From a virus: 13,403 nucleotides of DNA. Positions 200-12,868 of the stretch are shown here, one piece after another. The number at the start of each line of letters is the position of its first letter. Positions within the stretch are counted from its first letter, which is position 1. Where the stretch lies: IMG/VR virus record IMGVR_UViG_3300006072_001582; one strand, 5' to 3'. Position numbers and translations under genes: made by a program. A model generated the notes under the pieces. That model did no database searches. It was not told the origin of the DNA and was given only the letters and a program-made list of their open reading frames with translations.

Positions 200-568
200 T
201 TACTGCTCAGCCTGAGCAGCGTTGAGCTCAGCCATAGCAGCGTAGAACTTAGCCCAAGCAGCCTTGACCTCAGGCTTAGACAAAGCAGCGTCGTACTTAG
301 CCAAAGCAGCGTGGTACTCAGCCCAAGCATCGTCGAACTCAGCCTCGGCAGCCTTGAACTCAGCCTGAGCAGCGTAGTACTCAGCCTTAGCAGCGTCACG
401 CTTAGCCCAAGCAGCGTCCTGCTTAGCCTCGTACTTAGCCTCAACAGCCTCGTACGCAGCCAAAGCAGCCTCGTACTCAGCCTTAGCCTCAGCAGTCATG
501 AGCTCAGCCGCAGCAGCGTAGTGCTCAACCAAAGCCTTAGCAGCGTCGATCGTTGTTACTTCCTTCAT
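200..568 (-). CDS. Ala-rich (about 45% Ala) acidic protein, probably alpha-helical, built on a 7-residue repeat with the consensus pattern x-A-A-x-A-x-aromatic
   Basis: 122-aa ORF with ATG at 566-568 and TAA at 200-202, preceded by a GAGGAGG RBS at 574-580. Aromatic residues (Y/F/W) recur every 7 residues at positions 32, 39, 46, 64, 71, 78, 85 and 92, and again at 54 with an 8-residue gap. The heptads read AEYEAAL, AAYEAVE, AKYEAKQ and so on. The overlapping frames 142-444(-) and 311-601(+) are low-complexity shadows of the same repeat. Confidence 0.7.
   Translation of the reverse strand: MKEVTTIDAAKALVEHYAAAAELMTAEAKAEYEAALAAYEAVEAKYEAKQDAAWAKRDAAKAEYYAAQAEFKAAEAEFDDAWAEYHAALAKYDAALSKPEVKAAWAKFYAAMAELNAAQAEQ
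215..545. repeat. imperfect 21-nt periodic tandem repeat at the DNA level, underlying the heptad repeats of the 200-568 protein
   Basis: Units of the form agcagcgt(a/c/g)gtactcagcc(t/c)tagc / cagcctcgtac recur about every 21 nt (for example 281-301, 302-322, 365-385, 386-406). The base composition is dominated by gca/gcc/gcg strings. Confidence 0.6.
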
Positions 569-1416: not shown

Positions 1417-2082
1417 ATGGCACAATTCAACGACTGGTCAAAGAGCTACCAGAACTCACTTGGCAATGCAAAAATGGCGGCGATTAGAATCGCTGAGAAT
1501 AGATACCAAACGCGTGATGAATACGAAAAGAACAAGCCTAACGTCCCTAATGCAAGAATGGTTGATGAAGTCCGTAATAACCACAATGACGTTATGGACA
1601 GCATTGGGAAGTTCCAGCAAGGCGTTGGCAAAATTAATGAGATGCACCAAGAAGTACTGAAGCGCACACAACCAGGCGTTAACCAAAAGAGCCTTGTGGA
1701 ACACTATAGTGATCTTATGGAAAAGCATTTCCCCACAGAGCAGACAAGCACAAAGAGCAAGGCTCCTCAGACAAACATTAGCAAAGAAGTAACAAATCCT
1801 AACGTTCCTCTTAATTCAAGAGTGAAAATGATGCAAGACCCAGACACTAAGTACGACCCACAAGTCTACAAGCACGTTCGCGATGTGCCACCACTTAAGC
1901 CTAAGAGTGCTTCTTTCGCTGAGCGTTACGCCAACGATAACTCAATGGGGGAAAATAAGCCTATGGATGGGCACATCCCAGGCAATTCTCGCTACTGCTA
2001 CAACTGTGGAAACACCCAAGACATTGTTTGGGACCCAAGTCAAGAATACGGTACTGGATGGATTTGCCGTGGTGGTTGCTAA
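1417..2082 (+). CDS. hypothetical protein (221 aa) with a C-terminal zinc-ribbon-like motif (CYNCGNTQ...WICRGGC). Its N-terminus (NDWSKSY) resembles the WSKRYAAE motif of the 4188-5202 paralogs.
   Basis: Long ORF, the first in the plus-strand block. Cys motif is C-x2-C-x17-C-x3-C at the C-terminus. The minus-strand overlapping ORFs (1446-1667, 1456-1728) look like shadows. Confidence 0.7.
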   Translation: MAQFNDWSKSYQNSLGNAKMAAIRIAENRYQTRDEYEKNKPNVPNARMVDEVRNNHNDVMDSIGKFQQGVGKINEMHQEVLKRTQPGVNQKSLVEHYSDLMEKHFPTEQTSTKSKAPQTNISKEVTNPNVPLNSRVKMMQDPDTKYDPQVYKHVRDVPPLKPKSASFAERYANDNSMGENKPMDGHIPGNSRYCYNCGNTQDIVWDPSQEYGTGWICRGGC

Positions 2083-2188: not shown

Positions 2189-3304
2189 ATGTTCAACAGC
2201 AGAGAAGCTGCAAAACACGATAAGCAATTCAAGACTGGCGGACCTGCCAACGCTATGACGCTTATCTTCCAAGAGGGTACTGGCTACGCCACCCACAAGG
2301 AAGACCCTGAGTACTATCATGTGCCTCATGCTGCTGAGAAAGCCGCTAATCACTACATAGGTAGCCTTGGTGAGGGCGAAGAGCCCAATCCTGACGCAGT
2401 GCGTTTGTTTGGCTTGAAGCAAAGCAAAAAGGGCGACTGGTATCACAGTCGCGCTCACTCGCAGCTTGCCAACGTTAAAACCGCAAGTGACTACATGACC
2501 GTTGCTGTTCGCAACAAGACCACTGGTAAGCCTTACAAGCTCGAGCAGGGTATCCATCAACCTACTATGATGATTGCTCCCAGCGAAGAGGGCCACCTGG
2601 ATGATCGTGCTTTCCGTGCCGGTGAACACGTGAATGCAAAGACTGGTGAGCGTTTGATGGTCCACCCACTCTCAGCTTTGGGCCAATCGCACATTGAAAC
2701 GATCATGGCATTCAACGAGGGTAAGCGTAATGGCATCAAGGACCCTAAGTTCTACCGAGATGCCATGAAAACTGTCAGTGATCACACCCATGGTGACCTT
2801 GCAGTGCACCACGCATTCAACCACACCATCAATAACATGTGCAATACGCACGATGCTATCGATCCTGTTGAGCAAAATGTCATCGATCAGGGTAAAACTG
2901 CCCGTTTTGTTAAGTGTTTCTGCCCATACTGCGTTGTAAATGACAGTACTCACCCCACAAACCAGCTTTGGGACATGCAACACCACGAAGAAGCAGCCAA
3001 AAGAACTCAAGATCCCAAGATTAGAGCCGCTTATTTCGCTGGTTTCCCCGTTTCTAAGGAAGCTGGAGAGTTTGGTAAGGTCGGAAGACGTTCACACCAC
3101 CGTGTTTTGTATGGTACGAAGGCTGAACAGACCATTATCAACCACCATGTCAACTTTAGACAGGACGAAGACAACCATGCAGCTGTAGTTGCACCAAGAG
3201 TACGTCATCGTGCGAGAGGTGGAGAGGGTGTTTCTCACCTTTACAGTCCTTCAACAGCTATAAATAGAGCTGTTCACGCTGATGATAGCTACTCTGGCGA
3301 ATAA
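2189..3304 (+). CDS. hypothetical His-rich protein (371 aa) containing a CFCPYC motif
   Basis: Long ORF with an AGGAG RBS at 2176-2180, 8 nt before the ATG. No recognisable catalytic motif. Many His and HH pairs suggest metal binding. Confidence 0.75.
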   Translation: MFNSREAAKHDKQFKTGGPANAMTLIFQEGTGYATHKEDPEYYHVPHAAEKAANHYIGSLGEGEEPNPDAVRLFGLKQSKKGDWYHSRAHSQLANVKTASDYMTVAVRNKTTGKPYKLEQGIHQPTMMIAPSEEGHLDDRAFRAGEHVNAKTGERLMVHPLSALGQSHIETIMAFNEGKRNGIKDPKFYRDAMKTVSDHTHGDLAVHHAFNHTINNMCNTHDAIDPVEQNVIDQGKTARFVKCFCPYCVVNDSTHPTNQLWDMQHHEEAAKRTQDPKIRAAYFAGFPVSKEAGEFGKVGRRSHHRVLYGTKAEQTIINHHVNFRQDEDNHAAVVAPRVRHRARGGEGVSHLYSPSTAINRAVHADDSYSGE

Positions 3305-3376: not shown

Positions 3377-3769
3377 ATGTCAAACAACTGTGACTGTGAA
3401 ACTTGCAAGAACATAGCAAAGTACAGTGATACTACAGAGAAAAGTGCATATGTCTCCCGGTTTAAGGAGAGTATTGCCCAGATTTCCTCTCTTTCAGATG
3501 ATTTCTCCATCGATAAGCCAAAAGATGACGATGAAGACCACACTTATCGTATTAACGTAAGTGAATACTGTCAGCATGACGGTGTTTTTGTAGAATATTC
3601 AAGAGAAATCACCTTTTCTGCTTTCCAGATGATCATGGAAGAGCTTTTTTCGTCAGATGAAGACGATTTTGACCTAGATAACGACGAATATGAAGATGAT
3701 ATACGCGTTTTTGGCAGTTTAGACGAAGTTATTGACTACCTTCAGCAAGATAGAAGGGAAAAAGACTAA
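3377..3769 (+). CDS. highly acidic small protein (130 aa) with an N-terminal C-x-C-x2-C motif and Asp/Glu-rich C-terminal half
   Basis: The ORF follows the promoter and RBS above. It reads MSNNCDCETCKN..., then DDDEDH, SSDEDDFDLDNDEYEDD. The stop overlaps the next start (TAATG at 3767-3771). Confidence 0.75.
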   Translation: MSNNCDCETCKNIAKYSDTTEKSAYVSRFKESIAQISSLSDDFSIDKPKDDDEDHTYRINVSEYCQHDGVFVEYSREITFSAFQMIMEELFSSDEDDFDLDNDEYEDDIRVFGSLDEVIDYLQQDRREKD

Positions 3770-4191
3770 TGACCGTCGAAGAACACGACCAGAACATCAC
3801 TCATCATTACACCGTTCACTATCCACCTCACCCAGAGCGTGAAGATGACCCACATTACGTCGATTTTCACCATTTCCGTGAGAAAACGAAGGCAACAGCT
3901 AAATGTGCTATCGGTGAACACCGCAATGACTTCAGTGAGTGCGACTCTGAGCACCCTTTGGAGCTTCACCACACTCATATTGAGTTCTCATTGCAGAATG
4001 GCGTCGATCTTAAGTGGCTCGAAGTCGATTACCCCGGCGTTAGCGACCCAGACACCGTTGGTGCATGGGTAGAGAGCGCAACAAACCTGGAATGGCTATG
4101 CCTTTTCCACCACAGAGGTCATGGTGGCAAACACGTCACAGCTTACAGTGACTTTGAGGCAGCAAAATACGTGAGAGGACTCATCAAATGA
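3769..4191 (+). CDS. His-rich HNH-like nuclease fold protein (140 aa)
   Basis: The sequence ...CAIGEHRNDFSEC...LELHHTHIEFSLQNGVDL...ATNLEWLCLFHHRGHGGKH fits the HNH pattern: C...C, HH, N, then N-L-x-x-L-C-x-x-H-H...H. It is translationally coupled at both ends (TAATG at 3767, ATGA at 4188). Confidence 0.55.
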   Translation: MTVEEHDQNITHHYTVHYPPHPEREDDPHYVDFHHFREKTKATAKCAIGEHRNDFSECDSEHPLELHHTHIEFSLQNGVDLKWLEVDYPGVSDPDTVGAWVESATNLEWLCLFHHRGHGGKHVTAYSDFEAAKYVRGLIK

Positions 4192-4379
4192 GTAATTGGT
4201 CTAAAAGATACGCAGCAGAAAGCTGTTCATGCCATGGCTGGCCTAAACTGCAATGCCCTAACACTACTGAAGCAGAAAAACACATTATTTCTGAACTGAG
4301 TAGACAAGAAGGGCCATCTATTGGACAAGAACACTCACGCAGTAAAGAAGTAGCCGATTGGATCCTTGGAGAAGATTAA
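4188..4379 (+). CDS. small Cys-containing protein (63 aa), paralog 1 of the N-terminal WSKRYAAE-motif family
   Basis: N-terminus MSNWSKRYAAES, then SCSCHGWPKLQCP. The start overlaps the upstream stop (ATGA) and the stop overlaps the next start (TAATG). Confidence 0.7.
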   Translation: MSNWSKRYAAESCSCHGWPKLQCPNTTEAEKHIISELSRQEGPSIGQEHSRSKEVADWILGED

Positions 4380-4834
4380 TGAATTGGAAAAGAAGATACG
4401 CAGCTGAAGATACCTTTGGTTATGGTGATCCACACTACTTTGAGAAGCTGATTGATCACGCCAACTCAGGCAACCCCAAGCTTATTCAAAAGAAGCATGT
4501 TGATGATGCTAGGCGACACGGTATTACCGAAGACGAAATGATGCATGCCTATACCCAGGGTCACAATATCAGTTTATATGTTAGTGCACGTGCACGCAAT
4601 GATCCATGGCTTGGTGGCCCAGAAGCTTTAGAGCCCAGACTGCTAGCTACACATGATGAAGCGATTGACGCTCTCAACAAAAATGTTATTCCCAATCACT
4701 ATAGCTTGCTTAGATCAGTTGGAGAAACAATAGTCAATGGACGTCATAACCCCAACCCAACACCGCTGAGCCACGATGCTGCTGTAGCAAAATCAGGCAA
4801 GATGACTCCGTCAGAACGACAGAAATACTTCTAA
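4379..4834 (+). CDS. hypothetical protein (151 aa), paralog 2 of the WSKRYAAE-motif family
   Basis: N-terminus MNWKRRYAAED. I prefer the start at ATG 4379 over the upstream in-frame ATG 4358 because it reproduces the paralog N-terminus and has GGAGAAG 6 nt upstream. TAATG overlap at both ends. Confidence 0.7.
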   Translation: MNWKRRYAAEDTFGYGDPHYFEKLIDHANSGNPKLIQKKHVDDARRHGITEDEMMHAYTQGHNISLYVSARARNDPWLGGPEALEPRLLATHDEAIDALNKNVIPNHYSLLRSVGETIVNGRHNPNPTPLSHDAAVAKSGKMTPSERQKYF

Positions 4835-5202
4835 TGTCTTGGTCAGAACGTTACGCTGCTCGTCCTGACCAATGTCAGCTCTGTGGTGCATCAGATGATG
4901 GCACCCACACAATCGTTAGCAGCGGTAGGTGCAAAGACACTACCGATTGCGAGAACACGCAGAAGTACTTAGCAGAGAACCCACAGCCAGAGCCTCCTAA
5001 GAAAACTAGGAAAGCACCTTACGTAGACCGCAAGGGTATGGCTGCATGTGCTCATGGCGACTGCCAAGGTAAGAAGTACGAAGCAAAATACATGCATTGG
5101 TCTGATTCTTCAGTGCCAAGGCCATATTGCAACACTCACTCGTTCCTTGCAGGCAAAACTGGTTTGACTTTTAGTCAATGGAAAGATGTTTATGGGAGAT
5201 AA
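4834..5202 (+). CDS. Cys-rich basic protein (122 aa), paralog 3 of the WSKRYAAE-motif family
   Basis: N-terminus MSWSERYAARPD, then CQLCG...GRCKDTTDC...CAHGDCQGKKY...YCNTH. TAATG overlap with the upstream gene. Confidence 0.7.
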   Translation: MSWSERYAARPDQCQLCGASDDGTHTIVSSGRCKDTTDCENTQKYLAENPQPEPPKKTRKAPYVDRKGMAACAHGDCQGKKYEAKYMHWSDSSVPRPYCNTHSFLAGKTGLTFSQWKDVYGR

Positions 5203-5204
5203 TA

Positions 5205-5933
5205 ATGACTGATCGTATTGTTGGTAAATTAGGTAAGCTAGATCCTAAGCGCCCTGCTGGGTTGCACATGCTTGCTTTCTATCAGGGCAACCCGTTGCCA
5301 GCTGCACCAGAGAGCGTAGCAGTGCCAAACGTAGATAATTGGGGAATGTTAGGAAATGATAAATATGGGGATTGTACTTTTGCTGGTATTGTTCACGCCA
5401 GAATGGCTAACGCTGCTTTCTTACAACTTACAGAAGGATTCCCTTCTGACACCGAAGTCGAGCAAAGTTATCTCAATTATACGAATGGACAAGATGCTGG
5501 AGCGGTCGAGGCGGACCTACTAAAGTACTGGCAGACCAACGGCTTGTTCAACACAAAGCTTGCTGCGTTCGCCCCTACTGACCATGCTGACCTTGATGAG
5601 CTCCGTAGCGTAATTGCCTCATATGGGCTTGTATACATTGGTGTAAAGCTCCCAGTCACCTTCCAGCAGCAATTCCTTGACAACCAGCCATGGGACCTTA
5701 CAGGCACTCCTGCTGACAATCAGATCGAAGGTGGCCACTGTGTCATCCTCGTAGGTTACGACAAGGACTACGCTGAATGTATTACCTGGGGTAAAGTGCA
5801 GAAGGTAACGTGGAGATGGCTGCAAAGCTACATGGAAGAGAGCTGGGCTCTCATCACTCCAGAGATTGTTGAAAAGGGTCAATATGGCGATATGCGCCTT
5901 GAAGACCTCACTACTGACCTAGGAAAACTATAA
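5205..5933 (+). CDS. papain-like (C1-type) cysteine peptidase, 242 aa
   Basis: Motif order and spacing are as in the papain fold. They are NDKYGDC-TFAG (Asn/Gln six residues before the catalytic Cys), GGHCVILVGYD (compare papain HAVAAVGY) and ECITWGKV (compare NSWG). I prefer the start at ATG 5205 (GGGAGA 7 nt upstream) over the in-frame ATG 5178, which overlaps the previous gene. Confidence 0.55.
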   Translation: MTDRIVGKLGKLDPKRPAGLHMLAFYQGNPLPAAPESVAVPNVDNWGMLGNDKYGDCTFAGIVHARMANAAFLQLTEGFPSDTEVEQSYLNYTNGQDAGAVEADLLKYWQTNGLFNTKLAAFAPTDHADLDELRSVIASYGLVYIGVKLPVTFQQQFLDNQPWDLTGTPADNQIEGGHCVILVGYDKDYAECITWGKVQKVTWRWLQSYMEESWALITPEIVEKGQYGDMRLEDLTTDLGKL

Positions 5934-7012
5934 TGGCTACTATCCCACCAAGACTTAATGAGATCCTTGAAGAACAAGGTGACAAGGTTCGAATTGTTGC
6001 TAACGTTGGCCCAATGCAATACAAGACTGGTGGCACGTTCTCTGGTCTTCTTGTTGAAGCAATGGTTGGAGACGAAAGAATCGGTTATTTCACTGCTGAA
6101 AAGCAAGCTAGTGGCAACTACATCATGGATGGTGTTTACGTCGAGCCAGAATACCGAAACCAAGGCATTGCAACAGAAATGCTGCGCAAAGCGCACGCAA
6201 CTGTTAACGTTATTCCTTATGCATTGACAGATAACCAAGTTTACCAGTCAGAAGCTGGTAAGGGGTTCGCTGCTAAGGAACTTCGCATGGTCACAGCAAG
6301 CACAATTGTGACTGCTGGTCCTCTTCTTGCTATCCCAGAGCTTCTTGGTGCTGGAGAAGCAGTCGCTGGCGCTGGAGAGGCCGCTGCAGGTGCAGAAGGT
6401 GGTGGCCTTAGCGATGCATTGAAGAACTTGCCTAGTAGCAACTCAAGCGGTAATGAAAATGGCGACAATAGCAATGATATCAACAATACGCCAGATTCTG
6501 GTGGTGGACAGAGCTTTGCAAGCCCTGCTAACCCCGTAGTTGGTAGCATCATGCCTCTCGAGACTCACCCATTGGCTCCTACTAAGCCAATCACAGTTCC
6601 ACCTTTCACTGTTCCTGGTAAGCCATCAAAGACTCCTCCTAGCACACCACAACCATCTCCCACAACTTGGCAGCCAGCTCCTAAAACAATTGGTGATAAA
6701 ACAGAAGCTATGCCAGAACCTTCTCTTGAAGAAGAAACTTCTACTAAGAGTGAGCAAGAGACTAGTAACCCACCACAACAGAAAACTAAGCTTGAAACTG
6801 GTCAAGAACCAATGCCTACAAAGCAAACGCCAGAAAAAGGGTCATCTGGTCCTGGAGCAGGAATTAACCTTGAGCTTAATTTCCCACAAACTATATCTAA
6901 CTTCCCAACGCCAGCTCGACCAATCACTGGTAGCAGCAATAGATTAATTGATTTGTTGAATGAAGATCGTTTCAATTCAACTAACAATGACAAACCAACC
7001 AGCTGGGAATAA
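5933..7012 (+). CDS. N-terminal GNAT-family acetyltransferase-like domain (about 125 aa) fused to a long Pro/Thr/Ser/Gly/Glu-rich tail (about 230 aa) predicted to be disordered
   Basis: GNAT motif A is recognisable: VYVEPEYRNQGIATEMLRKA, matching V-x-V-x-P-E-x-R-x-x-G-I-A. The rest of the protein is GAGEAVAGAGEAAAGAEGGG, NSSGNENGDNSNDINN, PPFTVPGKPSKTPPSTPQPSPTTWQPAPK and similar. TAATG overlap with the upstream peptidase gene. Confidence 0.55.
   Translation: MATIPPRLNEILEEQGDKVRIVANVGPMQYKTGGTFSGLLVEAMVGDERIGYFTAEKQASGNYIMDGVYVEPEYRNQGIATEMLRKAHATVNVIPYALTDNQVYQSEAGKGFAAKELRMVTASTIVTAGPLLAIPELLGAGEAVAGAGEAAAGAEGGGLSDALKNLPSSNSSGNENGDNSNDINNTPDSGGGQSFASPANPVVGSIMPLETHPLAPTKPITVPPFTVPGKPSKTPPSTPQPSPTTWQPAPKTIGDKTEAMPEPSLEEETSTKSEQETSNPPQQKTKLETGQEPMPTKQTPEKGSSGPGAGINLELNFPQTISNFPTPARPITGSSNRLIDLLNEDRFNSTNNDKPTSWE
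6314..7009 (+). other. low-complexity coding segment (Pro/Thr/Ser/Gly/Gln/Glu-rich) within the 5933-7012 gene
   Basis: Translation is dominated by P, T, S, G, E, Q, N with no hydrophobic core. The shadow ORFs 6241-6552(-), 6540-6947(+) and 6626-6826(-) arise from this region. Confidence 0.6.
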
Positions 7013-7047: not shown

Positions 7048-8328
7048 ATGAGATACGCTACGCAGGATAACGGTAATTACGGAGACGATGCTTCGCTACG
7101 AGGCATTGAAGACGCTACCGAAGAAGACGATGCAGGGTTTGGCCTTCCAGGACAAAGCCAAGTCGGTACTGTTGGCCACTTTAGATTTGCAGACATTGGT
7201 AACGAAGACGAAAACTCTACGAGATTGACTGCTTTGGGCGATGAGCCTAAGGATACAATTGATCTCGAGGGGCAACCACCAGTTGTAAGCAATGAAGGGC
7301 TTTCTAGCGTATCTCCAGGATCGCTATCAACAATTATTGGAGCAAACATGAGCATGAATGCAAGAATTGCATACGTGATGGAGAATGGTGAGCCATTCTG
7401 TAATCACTGCGAAAAGACATACTTCCCAGGAACACGCATTGCATGCACAAATTGTGGTTGCAACCAGCCTGCTAATGACCACGGCATTGGCGAAAATAAC
7501 TTCTCGGGTGAGAGCCTTACAACAGTAGAAGGCCCTACTGCTGGCGACCTTGATGCTGGGCGTGACATCGTTAAGGAAGAAGCCAAGATGGGTGCCGCTG
7601 GTGCTTTCTACGCTATGTTCAAAGAAGCTAACGACAGTGAGCTTTACTACCAAGGCTACGGCGATGCACAAGCCGGTAAGCCAATGGACGAGGATCTTGC
7701 CCTCTTGAGCAAGGACTACTACAACGGTTACACACAATACAAGTTCTACAACAAGACCCCTCAGCAGAGCGAAGGTCAAAGCTTGTATGACATTAAACCA
7801 AATAGCAACTTAATTCCTCGTTCACACGATATGACACCTGGCGAAGCTGATCGTGGTCCTCTTGAGCTGACTGATGGTTTTGGTCACGCCACTGCATCCA
7901 AGCAAGCCGGTATGTATGATGCTGCACACATGTTCATGGATCGTAAAGACTCCCAAAAGGATGATACCAATAACTATCATGCAACTTTGCGTGATAATCA
8001 CCTCAATGCTGCTAACAAGTTGCAGGGTAACACTCCATGGACAGGAAGAACAAACTCCGATGGTTCTCCAGAGTTTCATGGTGCTGATACTTTCCATGGT
8101 AACAACCCTGATCACAGAGAAGCTTACTTCGCACACATGGATGCAGCAGAAGCACATGGAAAAGCTATAGCGACTCCTGGAACTGGCATGAACTACAACA
8201 AAGCTAAAAACAATGCAGATGTTGCTTCTAGAGCAGCTTGGGCAAAAGACCCAACGAACCCACCTGCTGCAAGAACTTCATCTATCGGTCTCCCCGTTGA
8301 TGTTCTCGAAAAGTTCTTTAGGTTCTAA
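7048..8328 (+). CDS. hypothetical protein (426 aa) with an internal Cys4 zinc-ribbon (CNHCEKTYFPGTRIACTNCGC)
   Basis: Long ORF. The first ATG is at 7048 (N-terminus MRYATQDNGNYGDD). No recognisable enzymatic motif. It is rich in Asp/Asn/Gly/Tyr. Confidence 0.7.
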   Translation: MRYATQDNGNYGDDASLRGIEDATEEDDAGFGLPGQSQVGTVGHFRFADIGNEDENSTRLTALGDEPKDTIDLEGQPPVVSNEGLSSVSPGSLSTIIGANMSMNARIAYVMENGEPFCNHCEKTYFPGTRIACTNCGCNQPANDHGIGENNFSGESLTTVEGPTAGDLDAGRDIVKEEAKMGAAGAFYAMFKEANDSELYYQGYGDAQAGKPMDEDLALLSKDYYNGYTQYKFYNKTPQQSEGQSLYDIKPNSNLIPRSHDMTPGEADRGPLELTDGFGHATASKQAGMYDAAHMFMDRKDSQKDDTNNYHATLRDNHLNAANKLQGNTPWTGRTNSDGSPEFHGADTFHGNNPDHREAYFAHMDAAEAHGKAIATPGTGMNYNKAKNNADVASRAAWAKDPTNPPAARTSSIGLPVDVLEKFFRF

Positions 8329-9720: not shown

Positions 9721-10242
9721 ATGGACAATTGGAATGGCTTTAGAGTCGTCAGTGCAACAGAAGTAGAAGACGACACTAGAAACCCAGAATATGAAGAAGA
9801 TGTTAGTGATTTGGTCACTGCTCTGAAAAGAATGCTTGCTGAAGCATACGTTCTCTATCACACTATTCATGGTTTCCACTGGAATGTTGTTGGTAATGAC
9901 TTCTATCAATATCACAAGTTCTTTGATGAGATCGTAGATGATATCTACGAAAACATTGACCCAATTGCAGAAAACATCAGAAAGCTTGATGCTAAAGCTC
10001 CTTTTGTAATGAGCCAATTGTCTGGACTTAGTAGAATTAAAGAAGTAGGTTCTAACGATGATGATGCACGTAATCTTGCTAAGCAATTCTTAGATATGAA
10101 TAACGAATACATTGATCACATTAAAAAGGTCTTTGTTCTTGCTGACAAAGATAACGAGCAAGGTATTGCAAACTTCATTGCTGAACGCATTGATCAACAC
10201 CAAAAGTGGAGTTGGTTCTTGAAGGCGTCTACCGAGGCATAA
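9721..10242 (+). CDS. dps: Dps-like / ferritin-superfamily protein (173 aa)
   Basis: Strong match to the Dps signature: LYHTIHGFHWNVVGNDFYQYHKFFDEIVDDIYENIDPIAENIRKL (compare Dps Y-x-K-x-H-x-FHW-x-V-x-G-x-x-F-x-x-x-H-x-x-F-E-E...D-x-IAERI). The C-terminal ADKDNEQGIANFIAERIDQHQKWSWFLKA also resembles the Dps helix-D region. The ferroxidase-site residues (His and Asp/Glu) are present. Confidence 0.8.
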   Translation: MDNWNGFRVVSATEVEDDTRNPEYEEDVSDLVTALKRMLAEAYVLYHTIHGFHWNVVGNDFYQYHKFFDEIVDDIYENIDPIAENIRKLDAKAPFVMSQLSGLSRIKEVGSNDDDARNLAKQFLDMNNEYIDHIKKVFVLADKDNEQGIANFIAERIDQHQKWSWFLKASTEA

Positions 10243-11806: not shown

Positions 11807-12868
11807 ATGGCATCTGCAAATACTCCTCAGCGCAAGAACTTTCGCTGCGTCTTTAACCGTTATGTCTCAGAATATAACAAGGACGCAGTCGTTCGTTCAA
11901 TCATGTCGCAGTTCGAAGGATACTTTGCTGATCCTGAAGTTACTTTGATGGATGATGGGTTTATCCTATCTCTTCAACTTGGTGATAACCTTTCAGCTAC
12001 GATGGCAAGAGACAAGATTCTCTGGAACCAGTTCGTAGAGAGCGTAACTGCTGCTGATGCCATCCGTAAGATACAAATCATCCGTTTACCTAAGGCTGGC
12101 AAAGAGAATGAGGGCACCGTAGGCGCCTGGGGGCCACACGGCAGTGATTCTGGTGTTGATGAGAAGCTTAACGTACCACTAGACCACGATCCACAATACA
12201 CGATCGGTCCTAATGAAGACGGATCGCTTGGTTGGCATGCTAGCGTACACTACGCTGACCCAACCAGTGAAATCTTGCCAACTGTCTATGGTCCAGGTGC
12301 TGAAGAAAGCCAACCTGTTGACGAAGACACCCCAAGTGACATTACTGACATGGATAGTGATGGAGCTACCCCTCTAGACGGTGGTGCACCAGCTAAGAAT
12401 CACCCAAAACTGTTTATGGGTTTCAAGATCGTTGCTATTGACAGCGATACTGGTGGTGCTTTCACTCTTAACCGACCAAACGAGTTCCAGAGTGTCAATG
12501 ATGCTCCTCGAGACGGTGGGCTTCACCAAGAAGCCACTCCAGCTACTGGTATTGGTGGTGGAGCTCCAATTAGTGGTGCTAGCTGGTACGTAACGCAACC
12601 TGGGAACGAACAAGGTACAGATTTGGGTACTGAGCGAGTCAAAAGCGATGCTTCAGCTGCTCCATTCGGGAACATTGCCGTTGGTAGCAGAACTGTAGAT
12701 GAGCCAATCGAAGAAGACGTTGAAAGTGCTGTTGACCTGCCACAAGCACGTGGTGGTGGTCAGTCTGTGCCAGATGGTGGTGCAGTAGAGGGCTGGTTCG
12801 CCAGTAATCACTTTGGTTTGAATGAAACATATGGATATGAAGGTGATGTAGATGACTACGACATATAA
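11807..12868 (+). CDS. hypothetical protein (353 aa) with a globular N-terminal half and a Gly/Asp/Pro/Ala-rich acidic C-terminal half
   Basis: Long ORF, ATG 3 nt after the upstream stop. The C-terminal half has repeated GGAP / GGGAP / GGGQSVPDGG stretches. Confidence 0.65.
   Translation: MASANTPQRKNFRCVFNRYVSEYNKDAVVRSIMSQFEGYFADPEVTLMDDGFILSLQLGDNLSATMARDKILWNQFVESVTAADAIRKIQIIRLPKAGKENEGTVGAWGPHGSDSGVDEKLNVPLDHDPQYTIGPNEDGSLGWHASVHYADPTSEILPTVYGPGAEESQPVDEDTPSDITDMDSDGATPLDGGAPAKNHPKLFMGFKIVAIDSDTGGAFTLNRPNEFQSVNDAPRDGGLHQEATPATGIGGGAPISGASWYVTQPGNEQGTDLGTERVKSDASAAPFGNIAVGSRTVDEPIEEDVESAVDLPQARGGGQSVPDGGAVEGWFASNHFGLNETYGYEGDVDDYDI

Follow-up and report, generated by a model that had tools for sequence, protein, structure and literature searches.

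We find that otherwise unrelated proteins of a clade of phages from lake metagenomes share a peptide of about ten residues, with the consensus M1-N2-W3-N4-x5-R6-Y7-A8-x9-[E/D]10. This peptide, here called the tag, is conserved as a peptide, is spread across the clade on unrelated protein bodies, stands at N-termini and at the junctions of modules, and marks genes in a hot spot of gene turnover. As the best explanation, we tentatively propose that the tag serves for capsid targeting and as a propeptide, in analogy to the capsid-targeting sequence (CTS) of phage T4. In the following, we describe the tagged genes, their distribution among related phages and the explanations that compete with this proposal.

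Tagged genes and their variable slot

The window, i.e. the whole stretch of 13,403 nucleotides that was analysed, contains three tandem genes, P1, P2 and P3 (Table 1), which an earlier note had described as sharing an N-terminal motif in front of unrelated bodies. We confirmed the coordinates and the tags of all three. Their N-termini are MSNWSKRYAAES (P1), MNWKRRYAAED (P2) and MSWSERYAARPD (P3), and their bodies without the tag show no significant BLASTP similarity to one another. The differences in composition that had been ascribed to the three proteins hold as well (Table 1). The genes are tightly packed: the start of P1 overlaps the stop codon of the upstream HNH-like gene (ATGA), the junctions P1/P2 and P2/P3 are both TAATG overlaps, and the ATG of the downstream C1 protease gene lies 2 nt past the stop of P3.

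Table 1. Tag-bearing genes in the window and the two genes that flank the variable slot.
Feature	Position	Strand	Length	Tag (position)	Remarks
221-aa protein	1417..2082	+	221 aa	MAQFNDWSKSY (FNDWSKSY, 1426-1449); internal SAS-FAERYANDNS (1915-1944)	First gene of the rightward operon; N-terminal tag degenerate; internal tag precedes a C-terminal Cys-rich module
371-aa protein	2189..3304	+	371 aa	MFNSREAAK (2189-2215)	His-rich; F-N-S-[KR]-x-A-A variant
HNH-like protein	3769..4191	+	140 aa		His-rich; left flank of the variable tag-gene slot
P1	4188..4379	+	63 aa	MSNWSKRYAAE (4188-4220)	Acidic, pI 5.5
P2	4379..4834	+	151 aa	MNWKRRYAAE (4379-4408)	His/Arg-rich (10 His, 10 Arg); ORFan
P3	4834..5202	+	122 aa	MSWSERYAAR (4834-4863); tag-like C-terminus FSQWKDVYGR (5170-5199)	Cys-rich (7 Cys) and basic, pI 8.7
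C1 (papain-like) cysteine protease	5205..5933	+	242 aa		Conserved right flank of the slot; phrog_19005
426-aa core protein	7048..8328	+	426 aa	MRYATQ (7048-7065)	Acidic, low complexity; tag shortened

The tags stand out against the background of the window. A degenerate DNA pattern for W-x-x-R-Y-A-A has exactly three matches in the window, which are the three tags, and 0.01 matches are expected (200 shuffles). In the six-frame translation of the window, RYA[AT] occurs only four times, each time among residues 1–10 of a called gene, and the fourth occurrence is MRYATQ at 7048. The earlier count of three copies was too low, as the window also carries variants of the tag at 1426, 1915, 2189 and 7048 and the tag-like C-terminus of P3. 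The heptapeptide RYANDNS of the internal copy at 1915 is found identically in L103 (MNWNQRYANDNS). Orthologs of the 426-aa core protein begin with MKYADT (L013) and MSNFAERYRQ (L146).

Searches with P1, P2 and P3 against Pfam, PHROGs and NCBIfam revealed no known domain. For P1, no homolog was found in related loci, and P2 has only two homologs among 5.8e9 proteins in an indexed search, one of which is 75% identical and has the N-terminus MSNWSRRYAAED. An AlphaFold2 (AF2) prediction for P2 from a two-sequence alignment reached a pLDDT of 49, with 38 in the tag region, where the conformation of the tag is not readable. P3 has two matches in the indexed search and seven credible family members in an exhaustive HMMER search, from which low-complexity giant proteins among the matches were left out. 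The W-x-x-R-Y core is kept in all members of this family at body identities of 39–73%, and it is followed by Ala in all of them except P0139 (RYK). The linker from the tag to the first Cys is 3 to 12 aa long, depending on the family member. All full-length members of the family also have a C-terminal [FY]xxWxxxY/F motif; a general search for tag remnants at C-termini found one in no other family. In P3 itself, Y-A-A is followed by R-P-D, without Glu or Asp at position 10.

The three genes occupy a slot between an HNH-like gene and a C1 protease gene that holds 0–5 tag genes in relatives, with tag genes present at this place in 13 of them. The HNH-like protein has a weak match to an HNH family (phrog_8048, E 0.004). 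Its position directly upstream had been taken as a likeness to T4, but the adjacency weighs little in this comparison because the HNH-like gene is a highly conserved core gene (74–84% protein identity across the clade) and not a mobile homing endonuclease. The right-hand neighbour has 222 homologs, and its residues Cys57 and His178 do not vary among 35 sequences. Its AF2 model (pLDDT 93.8) has xylellain (3OIS, E 2.4e-9), Lpg2622 and procathepsins as top Foldseek matches and also matches papain; its Pfam match to C39_2 is marginal (E 0.07, below the cutoff). By its predicted fold, this neighbour is a true C1 papain-like protease, which keeps alive the alternative, raised before, that the tag is a leader for the adjacent peptidase. 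PDB sequence searches with the C1 protease, the prohead protease, the HNH-like protein and a phrog_2859-type body yielded nothing useful.

The tag across the phage clade

The tag is present in related phage contigs of 40–139 kb from lake metagenomes. These contigs belong to uncultured freshwater phages whose host is probably actinobacterial, and their portal protein is 40% identical to that of Cluster C mycobacteriophages. We found no near-identical cultured phage for the window. A scan of IMG/VR for MNWNxRYA returned 55 matches on 31 stretches, often with two to four matches clustered on a stretch. Applied to 596 Gb of cellular genomes, this pattern matched 88 times, always singly and scattered, which is the chance level, and thus the tag provides no clue to the host.

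In the related contigs we counted 64 N-terminal copies and about 10 in-frame internal copies. When the tag was stripped, the 74 bodies fell into 41 BLAST clusters. The question whether the tag marks a larger family, which had been posed as a check, is thereby answered: the family is clade-wide. The logo derived from loci that were found without use of the pattern is the same as the consensus. Among 22 such unbiased copies, position 10 is Glu in ten and Asp in six (16/22 acidic), and [AS]-x-[ED] is likewise found in 16/22; Asp, Thr or Ser often stand where Glu would be. Across 688 ORFs, RYA within the first 12 residues was observed 49 times (1.9 expected). A second form, F-N-S-[KR]-x-A-A, is found on larger proteins, and FNS at N-termini was observed 16 times (2.0 expected). 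We link this variant to the W-x-x-R-Y tag because hybrids of the form FNSRYA exist (L133, L146).

The proteins that carry the tag range from 40 to about 740 aa (the 739-aa protein is encoded in L146) and belong to at least 41 families. Some of the bodies have recognisable folds, including a ParB-like nuclease (ParBc_2, E 1e-4), Cupin_2 and zinc ribbons. Solo ParB domains beside virion genes have been described previously (PMC5512222). Two bodies that we considered as ADP-ribosyltransferases (383 aa in L125 and 192 aa in L129) were dropped from this assignment for lack of Pfam or PHROGs support. Internal tags are located at the junctions of modules, and a stand-alone tagged gene of one phage corresponds to the module that follows an internal tag in another. 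The tag also marks the exact points at which genes are gained, lost, fused or split.

The codons for Arg, Ala, Tyr and Asn vary synonymously in the P3 copy and across 15 copies from relatives. Since the codons vary at invariant residues, selection acts on the peptide, which agrees with what had been concluded from the third copy in the window. A DNA or RNA element (promoter, ribosome-binding site, downstream box, repressor site or recombination site) was rejected on the basis of the synonymous codons and the in-frame internal copies, and a search of Rfam gave no family match. We also rejected recent local duplication or paralogy, which had been named as the outcome that would undo the finding: the bodies are unrelated by BLASTP, the same tag occurs on 41 body clusters throughout the clade, and the core is kept in the P3 family over diverging bodies.

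Tag genes are promoter-proximal and adjoin a divergent regulatory region, and a second cluster of them lies at the start of the operon, far from the C1 protease gene. They are found about 25 kb upstream of the portal gene, among genes that resemble early or auxiliary functions, which counts against a role in packaging. Portal and prohead-protease genes share the operon direction of the tag genes: in a related contig, the same strand also encodes, farther downstream, a portal (phrog_2833, E 3.5e-165) as well as a head-maturation protease (phrog_18299, E 8e-26). Large proteins encoded immediately upstream of the portal bear the FNS variant. The N-terminus of the portal itself, MMATNDWSAS, was not accepted as a tag, as it is homologous to the N-terminus of the Cali portal. 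One of the tagged bodies has a link to capsid assembly. The body of the 183-aa tagged protein in L130 (phrog_2859, E 3.6e-31) shares homology with the domain that stands at the N-terminus of head-assembly polyproteins in the cultured phages Roseobacter CRP-831, Synechococcus S-CBS1, Vibrio 1.122.A and Actinomycetia phage DSL-LC01.

Comparison with known systems

The earlier note had likened the three genes to the internal-protein locus of T4, and this likeness holds in part. The T4 CTS has the sequence MKTYQEFIAE. Compared by eye, it has no sequence similarity to MNWNxRYAxE, and the resemblance is one of format only. The CTS comprises about ten N-terminal residues, of which the seventh is aromatic and the tenth is Glu (PMC9026906); the tag has an aromatic residue at 7 and often an acidic one at 10. 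As in IPI, IPII, IPIII and Alt of T4, a short N-terminal peptide is borne by unrelated, poorly conserved small proteins, whose genes cluster within a variable locus, and the turnover of T-even internal-protein loci resembles that of the slot with its 0–5 tag genes and its ORFans P1 and P2 (PMC9026906, PMC3012670). A prohead protease is encoded here as well, in the related contig, and the homology of the L130 body to capsid polyproteins also speaks for the comparison. Other features depart from it. Unlike in T4, Glu10 is not universal, and Asp blocks processing in T4 (PMC9026906). The CTS of T4 is not known outside the N-terminus, whereas the tag also occurs internally and at the C-terminus of the P3 family; a strictly N-terminal signal of the T4 type fails to predict these copies. 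Furthermore, the cargo here is larger and more diverse, and the host and the phage lineage are different (an actinophage with a Cluster C-like portal).

Prohead-protease sites are Glu-specific in T4, phiKZ and SPN3US, and in phiKZ and SPN3US many proteins of the head and inner body are cut after a Glu that follows a short motif, internally as well as at their N-terminal propeptides (PMC9026906). The A-x-E at positions 8–10 of the tag has the form of such a site. However, these phages have no counterpart of the W-x-x-R-Y core upstream of the site, and the protease here belongs to phrog_18299, which is also found as a fusion in Cluster C phages. In phage P1, an N-terminal segment of the anti-restriction protein DarB is enough for packaging of this protein, or of a reporter, in the capsid (PMC9024508). 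There, the Dar proteins gave no consensus and 30 residues were used, whereas the tag is a sharp consensus of 8–10 residues on many proteins.

The pool of tagged modules also resembles the polyvalent proteins and solo effector domains described by Iyer, Burroughs and Aravind in 2017 (PMC5512222), in which conflict domains, including ParB-like nucleases and peptidases, occur fused or solo. For these proteins, delivery together with the DNA and processing by an associated peptidase have been proposed, and they are defined by their domain architecture and not by a common short peptide (PMC5512222). Pfam detected no MuF, MPTase or LPD domain in the proteins of the window or in 10 tagged proteins, where only ParBc_2 and Cupin_2 matched. 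For these proteins, the class of MuF-type polymorphic toxins and polyvalent proteins was rejected, as Pfam shows no MuF, no large packaging domain and no MPTase architecture in them. Bacteriocin and lanthipeptide leaders with a C39 peptidase share with the tag genes the tandem arrangement, the conserved leader, the hypervariable remainder and a neighbouring cysteine protease. They differ in that the leader here is about 10 aa long without Gly-Gly, the 'cores' span 40–740 aa, and neither a transporter nor a modification enzyme accompanies them. With no GG in the tag and a peptidase that is C1-like by fold, with its C39_2 match below the cutoff, this class was rejected. The tag is also not an ESX/type VII substrate signal (WxG, YxxxD/E), as its acidic residue is at Y+3 and not at Y+4 and no WxG is found.

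Proposed packaging signal and competing explanations

In the proposed explanation, P1–P3 belong to a large, fast-turnover pool of accessory modules shared by a clade of large actinophages from fresh water, and the tag is their portable docking or sorting motif. The residues W, R, Y and E/D, at i, i+3, i+4 and i+7, would point to the same side of a short helix, which a linker of variable length would join to the body. This helix may attach to some component of the prohead core during assembly, and unrelated effector or anti-defence proteins would in this way be encapsidated and later ejected with the DNA. Tags that end in A-x-E would be clipped by the head-maturation protease, and internal tags in fused multi-module proteins might serve as extra docking or cleavage points.

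A broader formulation seems to us possible but slightly more doubtful than the packaging signal as such. The tag would then be part of a sorting code that has not been recognised before, in which a helical peptide of 10 residues, together with its FNS variant, at N-termini and module junctions loads dozens of interchangeable, freely fused and split effector modules into the virion, from where they are co-injected. Such a code, in actinobacterial phages, would amount to another CTS system besides that of T4, more general in scope and of independent origin, and would offer a ready-made label to find ejected anti-defence proteins in metagenomes. As a packaging signal, the tag would place dozens of orphan genes of uncultured phages into one functional class that is delivered with the DNA, which is where anti-defence functions are expected. 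The solution of T4, one label for many cargos, would have arisen independently in a distant phage lineage, and the ten residues could become a handle for protein delivery by actinophages into Actinobacteria.

The strongest competitor, which we nevertheless regard as rather unlikely, is that the tag is the recognition and cleavage site of the adjacent C1 protease, which would remove a leader and make polyprotein-like cuts at internal tags independently of the capsid. The tag-gene slot abuts the protease gene in 13 relatives, the protease has a genuine C1 endopeptidase fold with an invariant Cys and His, and internal tags stand at junctions whose modules occur elsewhere as stand-alone tagged genes. 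C1 proteases generally prefer a hydrophobic or aromatic P2 residue, which the Tyr followed by Ala would supply. Yet the second tag cluster is distant from the protease gene, and the L144 phage encodes a 58%-identical protease and has no tagged genes in 20 kb. A cursory look at Komagataeibacter phages with distant protease homologs likewise revealed no tagged genes. Moreover, a plausible scissile bond is not flanked by a conserved pattern on both sides, and taking 8–10 residues off a stand-alone protein needs a further rationale. Somewhat less probable still is a role of the tag as a short linear motif through which the modules dock on another common partner, either a host hub protein, which would serve host takeover, or a phage factor outside the virion. 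This agrees with conserved residues on one helical face, with the tolerance of N-terminal, internal and C-terminal positions and with the promoter-proximal genes beside the divergent regulatory region. A candidate partner is a MoxR-type AAA+/vWA pair encoded on the genome's other arm, of which the AAA+ gene is common to the group of the 54-kb contig and that of the roughly 100-kb contig, both of which are tagged. However, each genome would set five to eight different proteins in competition for one partner; such competition would be expected at a single host target and not at a scaffold of many copies. The motif does not exceed chance in host proteins (596 Gb of cellular genomes), and the link of the L130 body to capsid-assembly polyproteins is left unexplained. 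Even if the papain-like protease or another partner reads the tag, a position-flexible peptide on more than 40 unrelated families is an unusually clean short linear motif for a phage.

We consider it very improbable that the tag is a degron, as the earlier note had suggested among its alternatives, or a timing signal through which a host or phage protease gives the accessory proteins the same short lifetime. A common N-terminal peptide on many small, probably transient proteins would suit such a role, and bacterial AAA+ proteases are known to recognise motifs at N-termini. But internal and C-terminal copies fit poorly, and the tag is retained on large conserved proteins such as the 739-aa L146 protein and the g426 family. 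In addition, a Met-Asn N-terminus keeps its initiator Met, and thus no N-degron is exposed at tags with Asn after Met. Equally improbable, and largely refuted, is a shared sequence without a protein function of its own, that is, a junction for the shuffling of cassettes or a remnant of fast-diverging paralogous ancestry. The exact coincidence of gene gain, loss, fusion and splitting with the tag would fit this reading, as would the tag-coding stretches of P1 and P2, which match at 17/20 nt. On the other side, the Asn, Arg, Tyr and Ala residues are invariant over synonymous codons, and the core of the tag is kept in the P3 family as the body drops to 39% identity. The 41 unrelated bodies, among them ParB-like, cupin and zinc-ribbon proteins, exclude simple paralogy.

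The tag in the window

The earlier note had described three coupled genes that share only a short N-terminal motif. We recovered these ORFs (P1, P2 and P3, Table) in tandem on the plus strand, with the junctions ATGA, TAATG and TAATG. Within the block, no promoter-like or terminator-like site was found on the plus strand, and the downstream peptidase gene starts 2 nt past the P3 stop. The shared motif, hereafter the tag, held up as well: a degenerate DNA pattern for W-x-x-R-Y-A-A matches only the three tag sites, where shuffled sequences lead us to expect 0.01 matches. Furthermore, RYA[AT] occurs four times in the six-frame translation of the window, each time among residues 1–10 of a called gene. 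The remainders of the proteins (bodies) are otherwise unrelated, as had been claimed. Tag-stripped P1, P2 and P3 have no significant similarity in BLASTP, and their compositions match the description (P1 short and acidic, P2 His/Arg-rich, P3 Cys-rich and basic). Nothing was recognised when P1–P3 were searched in Pfam, PHROGs, NCBIfam and Rfam. Related loci contain no homologs of P1 or P2, and only two P2 homologs were found among 5.8 billion proteins.

The members in the window exceed these three (Table). Larger proteins (370–820 aa) start with F-N-S-[KR]-x-A-A, and FNS is found at 16 N-termini vs 2.0 expected. Hybrid tags (MKRTFNSRYAHG, MRHFNSRYAATE in a 739-aa protein and KFNSRHQSWTQRYSKD), such as FNSRYAAT, show that this F-variant and the W-type tag are one motif; we thus read the variant as a W-type tag with Phe replacing Trp. 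Just upstream of the portal gene of a merged relative, three F-variant proteins of 492, 817 and 779 aa begin MDKTFNSKYSSG, MKKFVFNKEIEY and MNKPTFNSKIAAT, respectively; they are low-complexity and Cys/His-rich.

Coordinates of tagged genes, tag-like sites and other features (in the window unless a related locus is named)
Feature	Position	Strand	Length	Tag or remark
P1	4188–4379	+	63 aa	MSNWSKRYAAE
P2	4379–4834	+	151 aa	MNWKRRYAAE
P3	4834–5202	+	122 aa	MSWSERYAAR
P3, C-terminal tag-like site	5170–5199			FSQWKDVYGR
First gene, internal tag	1915–1944		221 aa	N-terminal MAQFNDWSKSY, internal SAS-FAERYANDNS
F-variant protein	2189–2215		371 aa	MFNSREAAK, at the given position
F-variant sites, L107	6562, 8801, 11247			8801 and 11247 identical to 8801 and 11247 of L108
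F-variant site, L146	5072
Acidic protein	7048		426 aa	MRYATQ; orthologs begin MKYADT or MSNFAERYRQ
353-aa protein family, tag-like stretch	11852–11872			CVFNRYVSE, close to N-terminus
Ortholog of the 353-aa protein, L146	16609			tag-like stretch mid-protein, NFNSRYADPESDD
HNH-like gene	3769–4191		140 aa	17 His
Peptidase gene	5205–5933
GNAT-domain protein	5933–7012
Ferritin/Dps-like protein	9721–10242			Pfam Ferritin, E 7e-20
Ala/Glu/Lys/Tyr-rich ORF	200–568	−	122 aa
21-nt (heptad) tandem repeat	206–483			~10 copies
Leftward arm, L008	1–7000			G+C 50–56%
Rightward arm, L008	7000–20726			G+C ~37–47%
Two consecutive genes, L144	12042–13210			MANWFED, MSWYED
Cali gp93 'tape measure' region, L141	18335–18874

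Conservation and spread of the tag

Conservation had been placed on the peptide, and this is what we observe: across 15 copies, the codons for Asn, Arg, Tyr, Ala and Ser show synonymous variation at constant residues. Selection is at the peptide level. All members of the P3 family, whose identity ranges from 73% to 39%, keep the W-x-x-R-Y core; in all but one, Ala comes next. Between the tag and the first Cys lie 3 to 12 linker residues, and some members (L014, P0126, P0127) carry a 57-residue zinc-ribbon-like extension ahead of the tag. The kept core, the variable linker and these extensions set the tag apart as an element separate from the fold of the body. At the C-terminus, full-length members have a conserved tag-like [FY]-x-x-W-x-x-x-[YF]-[RK]-R-R (P0125–P0131; e.g. 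FNSWKNRYRRR in a relative) and are thus tag-like at both ends. On a helical wheel, the four best conserved positions (W0, R3, Y4 and E7) fall inside a 100-degree arc, which suggests a short helix with a single recognition face; the AF2 model of P2 is too poor in quality for the conformation of the tag to be read.

The tag marks a larger family across related phages. In relatives, this peptide heads different bodies, and one 99.7-kb contig contains five tandem genes that all start with MNW-N-x-[RK]-Y-A. An exact scan of IMG/VR for DNA encoding M-N-W-N-x-R-Y-A yielded 55 matches in 31 stretches, often 2–4 of them clustered; all 31 are on contigs of 5.8–133 kb, apparently from one kind of lake sample. 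Scanned in the same way, 596 Gb of bacterial and archaeal genomes gave 88 scattered single matches in unrelated taxa, as expected by chance. Related loci hold 64 distinct N-terminal copies, with the start codon 2–3 codons upstream of Trp, and about ten more that are internal and in-frame; without their tags, the 74 bodies form 41 BLAST clusters. The consensus is M(-2) N(-1) W0 N1 x2 R3 Y4 A5 x6 [E/D]7. Since a logo from loci recovered via other proteins (22 N-terminal and 8 internal copies) is identical, the consensus does not stem from the search pattern. Furthermore, 'RYA' is found 49 times within the first 12 residues of the 688 ORFs of related loci vs 1.9 expected.

Depending on the relative, zero to five tagged genes occupy the slot between the HNH-like and peptidase genes, and a second cluster lies at the operon start. 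The peptidase, 54–90% identical across the clade, is a core gene. The gene that the earlier note called HNH does adjoin the block, but its match is weak (phrog_8048, E 0.004); as its protein is 74–84% identical in relatives, it behaves like part of the core genome rather than like a mobile homing endonuclease. Fusion and splitting of modules occur at the tag. Several 350–500-aa proteins have an N-terminal tag and an internal one ~100–150 residues from the end, and what one phage encodes as a separate tagged gene corresponds in another to the module behind an internal tag. Most bodies are unrecognisable; the exceptions include a family that is a ParB-like nuclease domain and a cupin family.

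Candidate functions of the tag

The occurrence of the tag across the clade, on unrelated bodies and in several positions, would require a position-tolerant reader. In a single phage, such a reader would simultaneously recognise many unrelated proteins by a short peptide and accept this peptide at N-termini, module junctions and a C-terminus. Marking many cargos with one short address is a known principle, with the T4 capsid-targeting sequence (CTS) of internal proteins as the best-known precedent. The first 10 residues of IPIII are sufficient; targeting involves residues 4 and 7, and processing involves residues 8 and 10; an Asp in the tenth position stops cleavage and leaves targeting unaffected; the prohead protease cleaves after L/I-x-E; and internal proteins vary widely among T4 relatives (PMC9026906, PMC3012670). 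DarB of bacteriophage P1 has an N-terminal packaging signal as well (PMC9024508).

Our tag resembles the CTS in its length and in having an aromatic position 7 and an acidic position 10 preceded by A-x; a prohead protease gene also lies in the operon direction of the tag genes. This shared format leads us to rank a putative capsid-targeting and propeptide role first, at somewhat less than an even chance. Against it stand the Glu that is missing in many copies, the internal copies and the promoter-proximal position of the tagged genes. The resemblance to the T4 internal-protein locus proposed earlier extends to the tag format and the variable slot; the reported A-A-E ending applies to P1 and P2 but not to P3. 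Evidence directly on location, itself indirect, comes solely from one tagged family (L130, 183 aa) that matches phrog_2859 (E 3.6e-31). By tblastn, this domain is the N-terminus of head-assembly polyproteins in cultured phages: a 975-aa 'major capsid protein' directly behind the portal in Roseobacter phage CRP-831, the 837-aa major head protein of Synechococcus phage S-CBS1, a 661-aa protein between MuF-like and capsid genes in Vibrio phage 1.122.A and a 'capsid maturation protease' in Actinomycetia phage DSL-LC01. Elsewhere, the domain thus enters the procapsid interior via covalent fusion; here it is solo and tagged.

As the main rival to capsid targeting, the tag may be read by the neighbouring C1 protease, an alternative that we consider unlikely. 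This peptidase, with 222 homologs, is among the most conserved genes of the clade. A confident model (pLDDT 93.8), structural matches to xylellain and Legionella Lpg2622 (the closest) as well as procathepsins and papain, and the invariant Cys57 and His178 identify it as a true C1 papain-like endopeptidase. The protease does not need the tag: in L144, a phage whose copy is 58% identical, 20 kb contain no tagged gene. A little less probable still is docking to a different partner, for example a host hub or the AAA+/vWA pair, and we give very little credence to a degron. We think just as little of a functionless recombination scar or paralogy, which is largely refuted by the synonymous codon variation, the 41 body clusters and the core retention in the P3 family.

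A full-text literature search found no report of this tag, which appears not to have been described previously. The same appears to apply to the F-variant, the use at module junctions, the range of carriers (at least 41 families, with proteins of 40 to about 740 aa) and the occurrence in actinophages. The observation of the tag itself is solid and directly testable.

Source phages and other genes

DNA identical to the window was found in freshwater-lake metagenome assemblies, on contigs of at most 41.9 kb; no close cultured phage was found. Related IMG/VR contigs were recovered via the neighbouring peptidase (70–86% identical), and 50 kb of one of these relatives was merged. Since peptidase homologs occur on contigs of up to about 139 kb, the true genome size is probably of that order. 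The divergently transcribed arms of a related genome differ strongly in G+C (Table), and the junction between them recurs in contigs of three samples (L008, L009, L099). Read by eye, the leftward arm of the merged relative (G+C 52–56%) codes for a WhiB-like protein, an AAA+/vWA pair and an Rpf-like transglycosylase, a set that suggests an actinobacterial host. The rightward arm (G+C about 42%) starts with a tagged gene, followed by the window genes, sugar-metabolism genes and large low-complexity proteins. Farther down come a head-maturation protease (phrog_18299, E 8e-26) and a portal (phrog_2833, E 3.5e-165) that shares 40% identity with the portals of Cluster C mycobacteriophages.

Cell-wall amidase and C39 leader peptidase were ruled out as identities of the peptidase by the C1 fold matches and the invariant Cys57 and His178. 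In L144, a more distant phage that lacks W-x-x-R-Y-A tags, the consecutive genes beginning MANWFED and MSWYED are two genes downstream of the protease, past a DUF5872 gene, and may represent a different short N-terminal motif with two instances only. The phrog_2859-type domain lacks both a Pfam family and a solved structure; as an N-terminal module, it is widespread among the capsid-assembly polyproteins of cyanophages, roseophages, vibriophages and haloviruses (L148–L151).

In the window, the GNAT acetyltransferase domain (residues ~35–90) is followed by a ~250-residue Pro/Thr/Ser/Glu-rich low-complexity tail. The ferritin/Dps-like protein, an unusual phage cargo, is conserved in the operon. 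The 21-nt repeat underlies the 122-aa minus-strand ORF and also yields long ORFs, on both strands and in other frames, that are spurious. Lastly, the N-terminus of the Mycobacterium phage Cali gp93 'tape measure' region is 49% identical to the head-maturation protease of the clade; the old annotation is probably wrong, unless the protein is a fusion.
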